Program-made: the position numbers and the translations under genes
The notes under the pieces: model-generated
The model's input: the letters and a program-made list of their open reading frames with translations, nothing else
Databases searched by the model: none
Told to the model about the DNA's origin: nothing
In this document: in pieces, positions 1,057 through 23,330 of the stretch
How the letters are laid out: every line of letters starts with the position of its first letter
Position numbering within the stretch: the stretch's first letter is position 1
Assembly: GCA_964016885.1 (NCBI GenBank)
Contig: OZ024740.1
Location: 84,320,001-84,384,000, forward strand
Length of the DNA stretch: 64,000 nt
Source: Eledone cirrhosa
Taxonomy: Eukaryota
Reading direction: 5' to 3'

Positions 1057-1087
<31 letters not shown>

Positions 1088-1088
<1 letters not shown>

Positions 1089-1795
1089 GTAAGTATGCAT
1101 GTATGCATGAAAATTATGCATGAAAATTAACGGCTGAGCAGCCTAATTTGCATATTGAGTGAGTTAAATCGGTCAGGCATACCGAAAACGATAAATTGAA
1201 ACAAAATGAAAACGAAATTTCATTTCTCACTCTTAGTATGGCACTTACTTAAATGTAAGTATGCATGTATACGTACATACATATATGTATACAGACGTAC
1301 AGTAGCATGCACATATATATATATATACATATATACATACATATGCATACAGGTACACATACATATATGCACGTATCAGCCGTTAATTTTCATAAGGAAA
1401 GTATATACTTTCGAACGTTCAACTATCTGGCAGATGGGTAAACGGTGCTGATGATAGGTAACAAGCTTGAAACTAGTACATCGTTCCTGTGTCAGTGTTG
1501 AACAAAAAGGCGACGTGGTTGCCTTAACACCGTATGGCATAAATTCAGGCTGTTCAGTTTGTTTACAAACGAACAAAGCGACGTTATAATAAGCGCCGCT
1601 AAACTGATACGTGCATATATGTATGTGTACCTGTATGCATATGTATGTATATATGTATATATATATATATATATATGTGCATGCTACTGTACGTCTGTAT
1701 ACATATATGTATGTACGTATACATGCATACTTACATTTAAGTAAGTGCCATACTAAGAGTGAGAAATGAAATTTCGTTTTCATTTTGTTTCAATT

Positions 1796-1796
<1 letters not shown>
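1088..1796. mobile_element. Short inverted insertion (~1.4 units) of the 492-bp retrozyme family
   Basis: Same sequence as the 37.8-45.7 kb units with scattered differences. Orientation flips at a TCAG microhomology (1376-1379). Flanked by (TA)n. Confidence 0.9.
1441..1485 (+). ncRNA. Minimal type I hammerhead ribozyme with one stem II mismatch
   Basis: AACGGTG-CTGATGA-TAGGTAACAAGCTT-GAAA-CTAG-TA-CATCGTT. Confidence 0.8.
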
Positions 1797-1827
<31 letters not shown>

Positions 1828-2512: not shown

Positions 2513-2932
2513 AAACGGAAAAAATGAAACGAAATTTCATTTCTCACTCTTAGTACGGCTGTTACTTAAATATAACTATGTATACGTACATAGATATATG
2601 TATACAGACGTACAGTAGTATGTATATATATATATACATACATGCATACATATATATATGTACGTGTGGATTCACCGAACATTTATTATAATGCCCGGTG
2701 TGTTTGTAAACAAACATCCCGTATTAAGCCGTAGTGTCTAGCAACCATCGTTGCTCGTTCGTTCAACACTGACAAAGGAACGCTGTACTTGTTTCCAGCT
2801 TATTAGCTATCGTCAGCAACATATACCTTCCTGCCAGATTATTGAACGTCTGAAAGTATATACTTTCCTTATGCATATTAACGGCTGAGTAGCCCAATTT
2901 GCATATCGAGTGAGTTAATCGGGCGGGTGCAC
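2513..2932 (-). mobile_element. Older diverged unit of the 492-bp retrozyme family
   Basis: Colinear with the array unit (GAAATTTCATTTCTCACTCTTAGTA ... AAGTATATACTTTCCTTATG ... AATTTGCATAT) with many substitutions. Confidence 0.8.
2780..2822 (-). ncRNA. Type I hammerhead ribozyme, diverged copy with pairing-preserving changes
   Basis: Minus strand: ATGTTG-CTGACGA-TAGCTAATAAGCTG-GAAA-CAAG-TA-CAGCGT. Confidence 0.75.
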
Positions 2933-11890: not shown

Positions 11891-11955
11891 ATATATATAT
11901 ATACATATATATATTAATCTTATATATATATTAATCTATTTTCTTTCTCATTCTT

Positions 11956-11991: not shown

Positions 11992-12198
11992 CCCTCTTCC
12001 TACTATATCAAGCGTTAACCTAATATATACCTTCCATATATACTGTACCGATTGTGTTGTTATTTCTGTTTACCTTTTACATACATATATATATATATAT
12101 ATTATACTTTGGGAGGGTCATGTTGCCAATAAGAAACACACGCACCAGACGCTTTCATTTCAATTTATTATAAATTTCCGATTGGTTGGTCACTGGAA

Positions 12199-13785
12199 AT
12201 GATCAGTGAGAGCAATGTTGAATTCCGTGGGATTGATACCAGTGAACTGGGACTCCTACTTAAACTCACATATAATAATTATTACCTAGATACGTATGAC
12301 CTTATCAACCTCTGCCCTACAAGGCCAGCAAGAGGCAGACCACCTACCATTACCTCAATGGCCAAGAAAACCCACACAGAAAGATGGAACAGGTGGACCA
12401 GAGCCATATGGACCCCCGAAAACCATGATGAACTAAAGAAAATGATTGCACATGCGGTGGGGGCCAGTATAAAACTAACCCTTAAGGAACATATGTTCAA
12501 ATTTAATGGAAAAACATATGCCCAAGAGGAGGGAGCAACCATTGGCGTTAGTATTGCAGGTGACATAGCTAACCTATTTATGGTATGGTGGGACAAAAAA
12601 CTTAAATAACAATTAGAAAACAACAATCTCTTAACCGTGATTATGTACTCCCGCTACGTTGATGATATAAACATCGTAGTAAAAATACCCCCACTAGAGA
12701 ACAGTCAGGAATTAGAGAAAAACACCATGGAAAGCATCCAGCAAATAGCTAACTCCATCCACCAGTGTATCAAAGTTACTATAGACTACCGAAGCAAACA
12801 CCCCAACCATCGATTACCTGTACTAGACATAGAGCTCTGGTTAGAAACCATTAATAACAAAAAACAAATCCTCCATTCCCATTATGCCAAACCTATGACT
12901 TCCAAATACCTGATCCACCGAATCTCAGCTGTTTCGGATCACACCAAAATCAACATACTGATTGCGGATTTAGTAAGGGTCATGAGGAACGTGTCCCGCA
13001 TGTGCAATCCTAAATAACTAGAGAGACACATACAACACTTCATCCACCGTATGCAGTTCTCTTGTTACAATCAGAGAGATAAAATCAAAGAATATAGGGG
13101 AGCCAGAAACAAATGGGAAAAAAAATGGTAAATAATGATACAAACGGGACCTGCCCCTTCTATAGGAGCAACATTTGGAATAGAGTAGAAAGAACTAGGA
13201 ATAAGGTTAATAAAATATACACATGATATGATAGCACTAAATACCAGTGTGTATGTTCATCAATACAACCCCTAGAGGTGAACTAGCTTACAAATTTAGA
13301 AGGGCCCTAGATAAACTTAAACTAAATATTGAGATAGTGGAAAGACTAAGTACCTCCATAAAAACACTTATTAATAATACATACCCTTTTCAAAGACCTC
13401 CCTGTATAGATAAGAAATGCATAATCTGTAAGCTAAACCCCCATATTAACTGTAAAACTAGAAACATAATATATAGCATAAGATGTACTGAGGGACAATG
13501 TAAAGATAAGAATTTAATGTAGATAGGTGAGACAGCTCGTAGAATATGAGAACGATTAAATGAACACTGGCGAGAACTCCAAGATAGAAAAGACTCATCA
13601 GTACTCCACCAATATGCTAAAATAGAACATAAGGGTAAATTAGAGAACATAAAAATAAAAATAAAATCTACACACAGAAAAGACGCAATGTTTAGACAAA
13701 TCACAGAGGCAATAAACATAAATGAACTCCAACCAAAATTAAATAGAAAACATGAATGGAATAGCAACATCACAACTTACAATTA
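12199..13785 (+). pseudogene. Disrupted PLE reverse transcriptase + GIY-YIG endonuclease ORF
   Basis: ORF pieces 12199-12609, 12637-13017 and 13247-13522 plus downstream read-through, with multiple stops and a frameshift. Confidence 0.85.
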
Positions 13786-14233: not shown

Positions 14234-15227
<994 letters not shown>

Positions 15228-18200
15228 TCTTGGGTATGACATTAAACTACATCCAGTGGCAAGGCTCCAGTTCGGGAGTTCAGGAGATGTGGGGAATATG
15301 GAGTTACCCCTTAGTTGTCATGACTCCCAGGTCTGCCCTGGCCCGGGGTGGTAGTACCTGTTAGGGCTCCATTTATGGGTTAAATAACTACCTTATTCGA
15401 GTGGCGCCGGTAAGGTATTGTCAGCCATTGAAAAGAAATATGGAGAGTCGATCTAACAGCACTAGGGTTAGAGCCCCTAATTACACTGTCAAGGAGCAGC
15501 CTGGTCGTTATGACTCTGCTGGCTTAGAGCCACAGAGAGGGCCAGTGGATGATGGATCAGCTGTCTCTGAGACAAATATAAAGAATGCAGTTTTGTCCTG
15601 CAGAAGAGCCATCAAAATGGGCACTTTGAATGTGAGGACTATTCGAACGCTGGAGAAGAGAGAGGAGTTGGGACATCTGTTTGAGGAGAGTGGTATACAG
15701 ATACTTGCGATCCAAGAACACAGGATTCTACACGATGAGCCCGTGAGGAGTGTGATGATCGGGAGGAAGAGCCAGCTCATCACTACATCGGCAGTGAAGA
15801 ACACAACAAATGCTGCAGTAGGAGGAGTGGGTTTTGTGTTCAGTGCAAAAACCAAACTGTTGGTGAGGGAAATAATGCCTATCTCCCCGTGAGTGTTGAG
15901 GGTGACCTTCAATGGAAACCCAAGACTGACAGTCATCTCAGCCTATAGTCCAACCGAGGGGGACAGTGATGTGAATGCCGAGGAGTTCCATGAGGAAGTG
16001 TGTAGAGCTGTCAACACCACTCAGGCACACAATATCCTACTTGTTTTGGGGGACTTCAATGCACATCTGAGTAAGGAGGGCAGTGAAGATCCTTGCTGGT
16101 ACTTCCATAACAACACCAACCGAAATGGAAGACTACTGAGAGACACCCTGCTGGAGGCGAACTTGATAGCGACCAACCTAAGGTTTAGGAAGAATCTGGG
16201 GAAGATGTGGACCTACATCTCAGATATGCACCTGTCCAAGTCCCAGATTGATTTCATTCTGGTGAGGAAAAAGTGGCGGAATAGTGTTCTGAACACGGAA
16301 CCATACAGCTATTTCAGTACACTGGGTAGTGACCACCGGCTTGTTATGAGTGAGGTCCGCGTGAGCTTAAGAAAGAGCAAGGCTCAGCCCCGGAGAACAA
16401 TCTATGACTGGGGAGCTTTCAAGGAAGATGATAAGCTACAGGAGAGGTTCACAGTGGAAGTGAGAAACAGGTTTAGTGCTCTGTGTGGAGAGTCAGAGGA
16501 GAGAGAGATTGGATGGACTGAGGAGAGTGTGACGAGGAGGTACGGCCACTTCACCAATGCAGTGGCGAAAGCAAGTGAAACCCTGGTGCCGAGGAAAAGG
16601 AACAAAGGGAAGCACGTCAGCTCTGCAGACCCAAAAGTGTGTGCAGCCAGAGAACACCTGAAAGCTGCCAGGGACCAATTCTATGCTGATCCTACGGAGG
16701 AGAGGATGGAGACTGTGGAGGTGATGAGGGAAGAGCTCTGTACCGCTTACACTGAGGTCAGAGAGGAGGCACTGATAGAGAAGATCAGAAGTGTGGAGAG
16801 AGCGGTTGACAGATCTGGATGTAAGGAGAGCTGGATGATCATCAACGAGATCACAGGGAGGAAGAAAAGGTGTTCGAGTCAGATCCAGGGAACGGGGCCC
16901 GAGGATAGGAAGAGGAAATGGCTAGACCATTTTAGGACCCTACTAGGAGAGCCACCCTCCACAGCCCAGAGCACTGGGGAGATCAGGTGGCTGTTTGAGG
17001 AACTGGATGTTGAGACAGAGCCCTTCACCAGAGAGGAGCTTCAGAGAGCCAAGAAGAAGATCAAGGAGGGCAAGGCTCATGGAGAAGATGGAGTGGCATC
17101 AGAGGTGATGAAGTGGTGTGATTTTGATGATATCATCCTGGGGTTCTGTAACGGGGCACTGGAGAAAGGAGTTGCCCCGAATCAGTGGAGGAGCAGTAAC
17201 ATCGTCCCAGTGCCAAAGAAGGGAGATCTCTCTAACACCAACAACTACCGGGGGATCTCACTGACGTCACTTGTGGCAAAGACCCTCAACAGGATGATTC
17301 TTAACAGGATCCAGCCTGAGATGGAGAAGAAGCTCAGGGACAACCAGAACGGCTTCAGAGAGGGTAGATCAACCACCAGTCACATCCTGATGCTGAGGAG
17401 GATATTAAAGGGAGCTAGAGCAAAGTGCCTTCCTGCGGTCATGGTTTTCATTGACTTTAGGAAGGCCTTTGATTCTGTGGACCGTTACTGCCTGATGAAG
17501 ATCTTACAGGCTTATGCAATCCCCAAGAGGATAGTGGACCTGATATCACTGCTCTACACCAACACCAAAGCCCAAGTCATTACACCTGATGGGATGACAG
17601 AGTTCTTTGAGATACTGGCTGGAGTGCTCCAGGGAGATACATTGGCTCCCTACCTTTTTATCATCGTAGTGGACTATTGTATGCGCCTTGCACTGGAGAA
17701 ACACCAGGACTCTGGCTTTACTGTAGCACCGGCTCAGAGCAGGAGAGTTGGGGCGAAAAAGGTATCGGATGCTGAATTTGCCGACGACATAGTTTTGGTG
17801 ACAAATACAGTGAAGGAGGCAGAGGATTTGATGCGGGAGGTTGAGACTGTGTCGATGAGTGTGGGGCTGAGAATGAATGAAACTAAAACAAAATATCTGG
17901 TAGAGAATGTTGAGAAGCCAGAGGGGATCACTAATGTAGGCGGGAAGCCGCTGGAATTGGTTGAGGACTTCCTGTATTTGGGAGCAAAGATTGGGAATAC
18001 GGAAGATGATGTGGTTGAGAGGAAGAGCAAGGCCTGGGCGGCGTGCCACAGCTTGAGATCGGTGTGGAAGTCGGACCTTCGTGAAGACCTGAAAATCCGC
18101 CTCTTCATTGCTGTAGTGGAGTCTGTGCTGCTGTATGGGTCTGAGACTTGGACACTGACCAAGAGACTCACTCAGATGGTGGATGGGTGCTACACGAGAA

Positions 18201-18535
18201 TGCTGAGGATGGCTCTGAACATTAATCAGTATACACTGAGGATGAAAAACTCAGAGCTGTATGGGAGCCTCCCAAAAGTCAGCTCAAAAGTGACACAGAG
18301 GAGACTGAGGTTGGCTGGACATGCTCACCGACATCCAGAGTTGAAATTGCACTCAGTGCTCCTTTGGGAGCCCCTACATGGACACACTGGAAGAGGAAGA
18401 CCAAGGTTAACATATGTTGATGCCCTAAGGACAGACACTGGTCTGTTGGAGACGCAGGACATGGCAGCGATAATGAGGGACAGAGACCGCTGGAGAGAAC
18501 TCGTCCATGGATCTCGGGAATTTTATCCGCCTTAG
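15228..18535 (+). mobile_element. Near full-length RTE-clade LINE
   Basis: 5' UTR, APE endonuclease (GTLNVRT, LAIQEHR, LGDFNA, QIDFIL, SDHRLV), RT (NYRGISL, FIDFRKAFD, GVLQGD, FADD) and RTE C-terminus (RLRLAGH...RGRPRLTY). Possible 14-bp low-complexity TSD ACACATATATATAT at 15214-15227 and 18536-18549. Confidence 0.95.
15440..18535 (+). pseudogene. APE endonuclease-reverse transcriptase ORF (~1030 codons) with a single in-frame TGA at 15890-15892
   Basis: ORFs 15401-15892 and 15893-18535 are contiguous and in the same frame. The context ISP*VLRV suggests CGA>TGA. Confidence 0.9.
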
Positions 18536-18576
18536 ACACATATATATATACACATATATATACACATATATACACA

Positions 18577-18663
<87 letters not shown>

Positions 18664-19415
18664 GTATATGTGTGTGTGTGTGTGTGTGTGTATGTGTGTG
18701 TGTATATATGTGTGTATGTATATATATGTGTATATATATATGTGTGTGTGTGTGTGTATATGTTTATGTATGTGTATATATATATATATGTGTGTGTGTG
18801 TATTTGTATGTGTGTATATATATATATATGTATATATATGTGTATGTGTGTGTATATATATATGTATATATGTGTGTATATATATATATGTATATATATA
18901 TATGTCTGTGTGTGTGTGGGTGTGGGTGTGTCTGTCGGCGCCTGGAATATGGCTTAGGAGAAATTTGCAGATAATGATATGATAGGCGCCCAGTATTTTG
19001 AACAGGTTTATAGAGTTCTCTTGGCCTTTGTCACTCTAGGTGGAGCTTTAAGGAACTGGCTTTTGAAGAATTTCCCTTTTTTTTTGATCCGTCCACCATG
19101 GCCGGCCCCCATTGTTCTTATGGACACCTGAAATATGACCATTGTTAGCTTAAGAGAAACTTAAAAATAGGGAGTCGCACCTCATTCTGGACTTGATTGT
19201 GGAGTTCTTTCTGCCTTTGTCACTCTAAATATAAGAGTTGGCTTTTGGTGGATTCCCTTTTCTTTCTACCAATGGCCTCTACCCATCCCACTCCCAGCCC
19301 TCTCCTGCCAAAGGGATGTAAATACCACAACATTTAATTTTGGAAAGCCAGATTCCTGATGATTTCTAAAGAATGAAACAGTTCTAGTCCTGTAGAATCT
19401 CATCTATATTAAAAG
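18536..19415 (+). mobile_element. Right arm of the fold-back element
   Basis: Inverted partner of 14310-15227. Ends in (TA)n. Confidence 0.85.
19350..19400 (+). ncRNA. Type I hammerhead ribozyme
   Basis: AGATTC-CTGATGA-T-TTC-TAAA-GAA-T-GAAA-CAG-TTCTAGTC-CTG-TA-GAATCT. Perfect 6-bp stem I; GUA cleavage predicted after 19394. Confidence 0.85.
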
Positions 19416-20235: not shown

Positions 20236-21343
20236 TATATATATATATAGAAATAATAATAAATTTGAAGACTAAAATCCAAAGAGGGCTCGATAAGGAT
20301 AAATATATATCAAATATATAAGAACCGTAGAGCAAATATTTATTAAAATAACAGATTAAAGTTTAAGCAAAGAATCGCTGCTTTCACCCTTAACGGGATC
20401 TTCTGAAACTAGTAAAGTCAATCTGTAAACGCAGAAGTGTATATTTCAAAAAACGTTGCAACCAGAGGAAGACAGGAAGACGATACTTTGGTTCGTGGAA
20501 ACGTTCCCTGGCAAAGAACGGGAAAAAACGAATATAATACGTCATAAATAGAAGCGGTGAAAAACAATTACACGCAAAGACGGAACCACGTTTATGGTAT
20601 AAAAGAAGTCGTAGACTAATATTCTCTTAGGTGGTTCATAGAGACGTTCTCTGGCAATGGCGGGAAAAAAACGAAGATAATACGTCATATGTGGAGCGTG
20701 GAGAACAATTGCACGCAAAGACAAAACCACGTAAATGGTATAGCTGAAGTCGTAGACTAAAATTCTAACAAGGAAACCGAATGATTCTCCGCTTCATAGT
20801 TAATAATAAAGTAAATAAAATACAATACAGAGGTAATTGATATTAAATAAATACATACACGCTTCCAAATACGTTCATACACAGGCTACGCGAAAACACT
20901 CGCCTTAGGTATACAAACCACGCACATATAAAAATGTGTGTGTGTGTATACAAATAAATAAGTAATTAAATAAACGTATATAAATAAATATATACGTATA
21001 TAACAAGCGCACACACATACCTACATGTAAATACACAAATGTTCGGAGACAACGTCAACCAAAACATGAAATACACATATACACACACCCAACATACGTA
21101 CGAACCCGCATACTCACACACACGCAAAACTCCCGTATACACATAACCAAAAGCATATGTACCAGAATATATAAAAGAATATACGCCATAACATATACAA
21201 TCAAATACACGAACGAGATAGTATACGTACCTTCACAAAACATACAAGTAATATATACTTACCTATGCAAATAAGTAATGGTATAAACATAACATATACT
21301 TAGCTACCACATCAAGACGTAAAATATCCCCGTATAGATCGTA

Positions 21344-22060
21344 CTAACCATTAGGGTATAATGTGGGGCTGTAATACAGGAAAGTTTTGTGCAATTTATG
21401 TTTACAAGCCGAAATTGCCTCAGATTTTTTGTTTAAGATGTGGTCTGTGGCGTAGAGTATTTCCAGGGCCTCAGCGGCGCAGAGCTCACATGGTCTTTTA
21501 TTTCCGTTATACGATCTAGCCCAAGCTAGGATCTCCCAGTGTAACTTATATTGGGTGTGGTTGTCTTTTAGACTCCAGATATAAGCTGAAAGTGACGTCA
21601 TATTCCTTCTTAGAGGGTAACGAAAAGAATGAGTATGCATGTAAAGATGCTGCTTGAATCTATTGGCGGTTAACCCTACGTAGGCCCTACGGGACGTGGG
21701 TGTTTCAACCTTACATTTGTAGACAATGTTACTAGAGACGCATTTCCCGGATAGGGGGCAATCAACCCGATTCCTACAATTACAGTTAGTACTAACTACA
21801 GGGTTGCACGTGTTCCTACGGCAAGGTGGTTTAGCAAAATTTGAAGCTGTGATGTTATGTGCAAGGTTAGGAGTCGTAGAGTAAGACATTTTAATAGTAT
21901 TTCTATTAAAAATGTTACTATATTTGTGTGTAGGGGGAAAATGCTTCGTAATAAGGGATAGAAAGATCTTAGCTAATGGTGTGGCCACCTCCATATTATA
22001 TGGTGGGTTATACCATATAATGCGATGGGATCTATTTCTTCTAGGTCTATTCTCGTACTC
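21344..22060 (-). pseudogene. PLE C-terminal linker + GIY-YIG endonuclease (truncated)
   Basis: IIWYNPPY...KHFPPTHKYSNIFNRNTIKMSYS...CNCRNRVDCPLSGKC..NIVYKCKV..AYVGLT..FK..H..SF..LSAYIWSLKD..CELCAAE. Confidence 0.85.
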
Positions 22061-22658
22061 TGTATATGCTACCTTATCGACAAATCCATTTATTTAATTA
22101 CTTATTTATTTGTATACACACACACACACACACATATTTATATGTGCGTGGTTTGTATACCTATAGCGGGTGTTTTCGTGTATGCCTGTGTATGTACGTT
22201 TTTGGATGCGTGTATGTATTTATTTAATATCAATTACCTCTGTATTGTATTTTATTTACTTTATTCTTAACTCTGAAGCGGAGAATTATTCGGTTTCATT
22301 GTTAGAATTTTAGTCTACGACTTCAGCTATACCATTTACGTGGTTTTGTCTTTGCGTGCAATTGTTCTCCACGCTCCACATATAACGTATTATCTTCGTT
22401 TTTTTTCGTTCATTGCAAGAGAACGTCTCTATGAACCACCTAAGGGAACATTAGTCTACGACTTATTTTATACCATAAACGTGGTTCTGTCTTTGCGTGT
22501 AATTGTTTTTCACCGCTCCTATTAATGACATATTATATTCGTTTTTCCCCGTTCTTTGCCAGGGAACGTTTCCACGAACCAAAGTATCGTCTTCCTGTCT
22601 TCCTCCGGTTGCAACGTTTTTTGAAATATCCACTTCTGCGTTTACATAAAACTTTGTT

Positions 22659-22709
22659 AGTTTCAGAAGATCCCGTTAAGGGTGAAAGCAGCGATTCTTT
22701 GCTTAAACT
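22659..22709 (+). ncRNA. Hammerhead variant (CAGAAGA core) in the pseudo-LTR; second copy at 20360-20410 on minus
   Basis: AGTTT-CAGAAGA-T-CCC-GTTAA-GGG-T-GAAA-GCA-GCGATTCTT-TGC-TT-AAACT. All three stems pair, and U4>A is present in both copies. Confidence 0.6.
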
Positions 22710-22725
22710 TTAATCTGTTATTTTA

Positions 22726-23330
<605 letters not shown>

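Follow-up and report, generated by a model that had tools for sequence, protein, structure and literature searches.

The window analysed here is a 64,000-nt stretch of the Eledone cirrhosa genome (assembly GCA_964016885.1, contig OZ024740.1, positions 84,320,001 to 84,384,000 of the forward strand). Near its left edge the window carries a head-to-head inverted insertion at 1087-1798, hereafter the copy, which is flanked by (TA)n tracts at 847-1086 and 1799-1951, and farther to the right it carries an inverted array of 16 units of 492 nt. Unit coordinates (u) were assigned on array unit 42453-42944 as the reference, with u1 at window position 42453, the first base 3' of the predicted hammerhead cut. 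S1 (u268-283) and S2 (u325-341) denote two separate unit sites, ~60 nt apart, and the segment between them is referred to as the tail. The features of the two insertions and their surroundings were as follows.

847-1086, no strand: (TA)n/(TACA)n target tract on the left side (sequence and repeat parse).
1087-1104, minus strand: 18-nt left-arm stub beginning at S1 (u275), the tail-less end; identical to the copy's own 1254-1271.
1102-1129, minus strand: 13-nt tandem duplication, probably by slippage, at the template jump from ~u258 to u407 (TRF, 2.2 copies, 100%).
1120-1379, minus strand: main left arm, from u407 down to u135-139, with an internal tail copy and without the hammerhead (alignment parse).
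1376-1379, no strand: TCAG microhomology at the head-to-head junction (alignment parse).
1376-1798, plus strand: right arm, from u390 across the cut site to u336 (S2, the tailed end; alignment parse).
1442-1484, plus strand: predicted type I hammerhead, with the predicted cut after 1478 (sequence and motif scans).
1737-1798, plus strand: ~60-nt tail from S1 to S2, with two predicted hairpins (end census; fold z -2.3).
1799-1951, no strand: (TA)n target tract on the right side (sequence and repeat parse).
2513-2927, minus strand: older, diverged single-arm copy of the 492-nt family, starting at S2 beside (TA)n (alignment parse).
37841-41876, minus strand: left arm of the array, 8.2 units, from S1 (u278) down to u169 (repeat and alignment parse).
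41877-45734, plus strand: right arm of the array, 7.9 units, from u405 to S2 (u334) (repeat and alignment parse).

The first-pass annotation had described the copy as an independent insertion sharing both end points and the inversion with the large array. The copy begins with ATGTAAGTATG at 1087 (u275), not at 1088, and thus shares its start point with the left end of the array at 37841 (u278) to within 3 nt, while its right end, which is ambiguous (1795-1798, u333-336) because of TA microhomology, agrees with that of the array at 45734 (u333-334). Both insertions are head-to-head, but the junction itself is not common to them: the copy inverts at a 4-nt microhomology, TCAG (1376-1379, u139/u390), the different microhomology that had been noted, and the array at u169/u405. 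The distance of ~330 nt given for the 3' end downstream of the predicted cut also held, at 320 nt in the copy and ~335 nt on the array unit. The left arm of the copy was not colinear with the unit, and consisted of 18 nt from S1, a 13-nt duplication stutter and then a jump to u407. The arms were identical to the array unit at 404/435 and 254/274 columns (~93%) and to each other at 189/189 aligned bases, except for a 6-nt gap in the TA tract; the copy is therefore an independent insertion from another variant, as had been proposed, and its descent from the window array was ruled out by the ~93% identity. A target-site duplication was unreadable within the (TA)n microsatellite flanks. A sequence pattern built on the diverged sister copy at 2513-2927 had genome matches in the window alone.

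The 492-nt unit is non-coding and tandem, with one type I hammerhead motif per unit, and a 25-mer spanning the predicted cut had 15,060 exact matches in the 3.0-Gb genome. Helix I of the copy hammerhead is formed by 1442-1447 and 1479-1484 (6 bp), the CTGATGA core lies at 1448 and GAAAC at 1469, loop 3 is a palindromic 2-nt loop, and helix II has one G-G mismatch. Among the motif matches of all fetched loci, a set of 503 that counts in overlapping loci and other families, helix I was paired at 5/6 positions or more in 493 and loop 3 was a palindromic 2-nt loop in 499. Type I hammerheads with a short helix III and such a loop have been described as working as a dimer (PMC4209133). An Rfam search returned nothing at the gathering score, and the folding energy of the monomer was not unusual (z -0.94 and -0.25, not significant). 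In the tail, S1 is predicted to lie within the loop of the first hairpin and S2 immediately 3' of the second (fold z -2.3). The family has the make-up of a retrozyme, each unit of its non-coding tandem repeat bearing a type I hammerhead motif, and like retrozymes it is dispersed, at high copy number, as monomers to multimers; arms of clean insertions measured 39 to 4,642 nt. In contigs, the family was present in X1, on three contigs in X2 and on none in X5. A young subfamily lacked u107-122 in every array unit (L005, L007, L064, L086, L110 and L115).

To census the ends of insertions, 88 of the first 120 loci, the remaining 32 overlapping others or having been refetched larger, were parsed together with the two window pieces by jump-alignment on the circular unit, and segments with fewer than 18-25 informative matches or less than 78% identity were dropped. 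This first locus set was picked by the hammerhead core, and 80 further loci were picked by one end. The 162 outer 3' ends of 108 insertions lay at S1 in 62 cases, at S2 in 74 and elsewhere in 26, so that 136/162 ends fell within 33 of the 492 unit positions (binomial p ~4e-131). Only 2/162 ends were within 15 nt of the predicted cut. The earlier claim of a single fixed internal priming site thus stood in that the ends are fixed and internal, but there are two sites, ~60 nt apart and one per arm, in place of one; neither of the patterns named beforehand as contrary to it, breakpoints random across the unit or mostly at the cleavage site, was seen. A TA-type flank accompanied 118/136 of the S1/S2 ends (55/62 at S1, 63/74 at S2) versus 12/26 of the others, counts that are uncorrected for genome TA content, in agreement with the proposed targeting of (TA)n; a bias towards (TA)n or AT-rich targets is also found in Penelope-like insertions. 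Genome-wide exact junction patterns numbered 2,350 for S1-(TA)n, 2,696 for S2-(TA)n and 0 for cut-(TA)n, the patterns being unequal in strictness and the counts therefore lower bounds. Ends at the ribozyme cut were ruled out by the census and the genome-wide counts together. Junctions with the (TA)n target showed TA/AT microhomology. The surroundings of S1 are AT-rich, and the unit carries TA tracts of its own beside S1, in which some ends lie. The internal TA tract was also hit by later insertions, in L197, where 2.8 kb of a Penelope-type element was inserted, and probably in L170.

Inverted insertions combined the two sites according to a strict rule. Both ends lay at S1 or S2 in 87 of the 119 inverted insertions, and all 87 had one S1 and one S2 end. 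The rule held separately in the hammerhead-core set (58 inverted; 41/41 heterotypic, p 5e-13; 15 with an end elsewhere and 2 off the locus) and in the set of 80 loci for which one end had been chosen (61 inverted; 46/46 heterotypic, p 1e-14; 13 with an end elsewhere and 2 at the edge). The exceptions among the 119 comprised 28 with one or both ends elsewhere, several of them at the internal TA tract, and 4 that ran off the fetched DNA. Nested locus L170 has two S2 ends that face outward at a distance of 850 bp, and it was set aside from the pairing count because ~400 nt of another element separates these ends; the simplest, if ambiguous, reading is that an S1/S2 pair received later insertions in its central TA tract. 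The copy and the window array both follow the layout of one S1 and one S2. Inverted head-to-head arms with a tail on one end alone, as in all 87 of these insertions, are a Penelope-like trait. By eye, the same one-tailed layout was recognised at 6/9 inverted loci near GIY-YIG ORFs, with tails of ~38-64 nt (the other 3 were not interpretable), and it recurred in two other families of the window, at 14309-19414 and 20242-22733.

The annotation had further proposed that priming reads through ribozyme sites. Among the 164 arms of 82 clean two-arm insertions, 112 crossed a ribozyme site and 71 were longer than one unit; only 2 of the 113 arms that reached a first cut stopped within 10 nt of it, and 5' ends near the cut numbered 6 versus 10 expected. 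Read-through was thus confirmed, and the template was therefore not a cleaved linear monomer. By itself this does not demand a circle, because the one Penelope protein assayed in vitro favours uncleaved RNA, as described in the available text of that study (PMC11167929). The units of young arrays were identical, with 0/2840 differences in the left arm of the window array and 0/819 and 0/320 elsewhere. A register test for a heterogeneous linear multimer gave, in four older arrays, no register with a better arm match, and the young arrays were invariant; unit identity and the lack of a register are compatible with a circle and also with a source array of very recent origin, and do not decide between the two. 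Given priming of two strands on one RNA, we lean slightly towards a circle over an uncleaved multimer as the template.

We regard it as highly probable that the copy at 1087-1798 is a non-autonomous retrozyme mobilised by a Penelope-type element. For the origin of the inversion, we consider it probable, with appreciable room for doubt, that a Penelope-type RT-endonuclease made breaks in both strands of the (TA)n tract and used each end as a primer on one uncleaved, probably circular, RNA. A protein dimer would bind the tail and position one 3'-OH of the target at each of S1 and S2; the two RTs would travel in the same direction, the S2 enzyme either displacing the S1 cDNA or halting at it and so leaving tail-only arms, and the far ends of the two cDNAs would then be joined by microhomology. 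Junction coordinate pairs were all different in the clean two-arm insertions (82/82). Among the S2 arms, those stopping inside the first tail were in excess, with 11 at 30-65 nt versus 21 at 66-317 nt, a comparison window seven times wider (p 0.0012), and such short arms look as if they had been blocked by the S1 primer. Against this, most S2 arms ran past S1 (71/82), so that the one-RNA model requires routine strand displacement. The 18-nt stub of the copy is likely an S1 cDNA that came off its template early and annealed again at u407, at a distance of 17 nt from the stop of the S2 cDNA at u390; on the contrary side, a landing so near u390 has a prior chance of ~8% and was seen in a single case. 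S2 arms of 506-511 nt (L068, L075, L082, L109 and L036) ended one unit upstream at u317-321, on the 3' side of the second hairpin predicted in the tail.

The variants carried by the arms indicate that the two arms of an insertion derive from one source variant, a point in favour of the one-RNA reading. The partner arm was closer than the median other copy in 32/32 cases, and the indel class matched between arms in 19/27 versus 39% expected. Rare bases were common to both arms in 18/103 cases; the 85/103 that were not are expected from post-insertion mutations, which is not proof. Against the one-RNA reading, the partner arm was the single closest sequence in only 10/32, arm lengths within insertions were uncorrelated (rho -0.005), and short S1 arms of 30-65 nt also exist (5, mostly ending at the internal TA tract). 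There is some room, though we think it unlikely, for priming of the two strands on two RNAs or on two units of one multimer, with an asymmetric dimer forcing one S1 and one S2 start. Such a scheme accounts for the 87/87 pairing and for long overlapping arms without strand displacement, and the absence of a length correlation and the 10/32 count speak for it. It does not readily explain why arms share variants when more than 15,000 source units are possible, as seen in the 32/32 below the median, the matching indel classes and the 189/189 identical bases of the copy, and the excess of S2 stops inside the first tail suggests a block on the same tail.

Less probable again is the possibility that S2 alone primes, the inverted arm arising by self-priming or fold-back and S1 marking an endonuclease cut that resolves a DNA intermediate, ideas raised for Penelope-like elements in the sections available of PMC3846280 and PMC8557442. 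One tailed and one tail-less end would follow by construction, S1 does lie in AT-rich sequence, microhomology of 3 nt or more, as scored on the reference unit, occurred at 8/32 junctions versus 7% at random, and the junction of L111 is a 16-nt palindrome. A fold-back nevertheless needs one arm to be contained in the other. In 32/82 insertions neither arm was contained in the other, and therefore neither is a fold-back copy there, and the S1 arm fitted within the S2 arm in only 32/82. Moreover, tail-only S2 arms adjoined S1 arms of up to 1.4 kb, and both boundaries of the tail are RT start sites in vitro (PMC11167929, in the text available). At another inversion junction, in L222, a run of 14 T separated the arms (836-849). 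Spread as a DNA-level satellite, with inversion by recombination or repair between TA-rich tracts and no RNA step, is very improbable and largely refuted: the unit's own TA tracts beside S1, with some ends inside them, and the tandemly duplicated 6-kb block with a short inversion in L120, an instance of higher-order amplification at the DNA level, agree with it, but it leaves unexplained the two fixed ends, one of each per insertion, and the like layout in RT-coding Penelope-like elements of the same genome, and later loss of tails would yield S1/S1 and S2/S2 pairs, of which there were 0/87.

Returning to two-strand priming on one RNA, we put forward more tentatively, as a suggestion that may well prove wrong, that a Penelope-type RT-endonuclease dimer clamps both ends of the structured 60-nt tail and brings a cut strand of the (TA)n target to each of them. 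One RT would then follow the other, with strand displacement, on the same RNA circle, itself a product of the ribozyme. If true, a single step would account for three features, namely the inverted repeat of Penelope elements, their one-sided tail and the arrays of retrozymes, and in the stub of the copy a displacement event would have been frozen.

Metazoan non-LTR retrozymes have been proposed as non-autonomous partners of Penelope-like elements with circular RNA intermediates, and their entry into DNA has been proposed, not demonstrated, according to the portions available of two papers (PMC7229834; bioRxiv 10.64898/2026.07.22.740005). The 492-nt family resembles them in its low-GC, non-coding tandem unit with one type I hammerhead each, in its range from monomers to multimers and in its thousands of copies (Cervera and de la Pena 2020, PMC7229834; Li, Clavereau and Pollet 2026; both as partially available), and its unit length is in the upper range of theirs (PMC7229834; bioRxiv 10.64898/2026.07.22.740005). 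For the 492-nt family, cleavage is predicted and a circular RNA is proposed. Mapping of insertion ends, the inverted two-arm layout and (TA)n targeting, all three described here, do not appear in the accessible text of the retrozyme papers (PMC7229834; bioRxiv 10.64898/2026.07.22.740005). The words 'ribozyme' and 'retrozyme' are absent from the text of a cephalopod repeat paper (PMC13282606).

Insertions of endonuclease-bearing Penelope-like elements, as far as described in the available parts of PMC3846280 and PMC8557442, likewise have a head-to-head inverted 5'-truncated arm, a tail on one end and partial tandems, and their microsatellite targeting likewise masks target-site duplications. 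Their tail measures 30-40 nt versus ~60 nt here, and it is optional or found 'often only at one end', whereas exactly one tail was present per clean inverted insertion here (87/87). Self-priming or endonuclease resolution was proposed there, a mechanism that the containment test disfavours here (PMC3846280, PMC8557442), and the origin of the inverted repeats and the one-sided tail was named an open question in the text available of PMC8557442.

Biochemical data exist for PAc, a Poseidon element of the green anole (Frangieh et al. 2024, PMC11167929, cited here from the text available). In vitro, both target strands were cut and extended at AT-rich targets, reverse transcription began internally at two sites bounding the tail, hammerhead cleavage was unnecessary and a dimer was predicted. 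Top and bottom strands showed no difference in their start sites, which counts against our main reading. Fixed internal priming and read-through have therefore already been published for Penelope elements (PMC11167929), and the two PAc start sites match the geometry of S1, S2 and the tail. In contrast, the available text draws no link between this pair of sites and the two-arm structure of inverted insertions (the word 'inverted' occurs once, in a methods sense), and circular templates go unmentioned; TA/AT microhomology with the target at junctions is a further feature here to be set against PAc (PMC11167929). The one-site-per-arm rule predicts that in vitro a molecule extended on both strands uses one start site per strand, and the RNA of the 492-nt family could serve there as a small substrate whose start sites are mapped.

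LINE-1 twin priming likewise uses one RNA on which cDNA is primed from the two target strands, and it leaves a 5' inversion with microhomology at the join. Its second primer, however, anneals at an internal position that varies, and its arms are free of overlap, whereas S1 and S2 are both fixed, 60 nt from each other, and the arms here overlap extensively. The element class and layout are known; the strict one-site-per-arm rule, twin priming for Penelope elements or retrozymes and the mechanistic reading were not found in the literature searched, a body from which most subscription papers fell outside coverage.

The genome contained 10,596 GIY-YIG candidates, and fetched ORFs of up to ~1,000 aa bore RT and GIY-YIG domains. 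Five of six Penelope-type proteins from the genome had a CX4CX2C linker, which goes with the Neptune and Nematis clades and (TA)n targeting in the part of PMC8557442 available. The copy and the array do not themselves carry the RT and GIY-YIG ORF of an autonomous Penelope-like element: tblastn with the six proteins found no match in either. A blastn comparison of the masked unit with 40 loci (from 150 scored of the 10,596 candidates) returned inserted retrozyme copies only, with no common pLTR, and in these 40 GIY-YIG loci there was no autonomous element with the 492-nt unit, which counts against the main reading.

Elsewhere in the window, a weak RT remnant at 12109-12996 matched a Penelope-type protein in tblastn (E 7e-9), and a hammerhead-like motif accompanied it at 11953. 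The inverted insertion at 14309-19414 had hammerhead-like motifs at 14374 (minus strand) and 19349 (plus strand), and one of its ends bore ~70 extra nt ahead of (TA)n. The family at 20242-22733 is also inverted, with a tailed arm (tail ~95 nt), a tail-less arm and 141-bp internal repeats, and it includes a 249-aa ORF piece on the minus strand (21344-22093), which we take from its motifs to resemble a Penelope-type GIY-YIG C-terminus; a Pfam search of the ORF at 21347-22093 recognised no domain. At locus L013 (1340-1412), a tail-only S2 arm was followed by 72 nt that were 92% identical to the 141-bp repeat of this family and then by the S1 arm; this order may stem from a switch of RNA template from one family to the other and may also point towards the partner.
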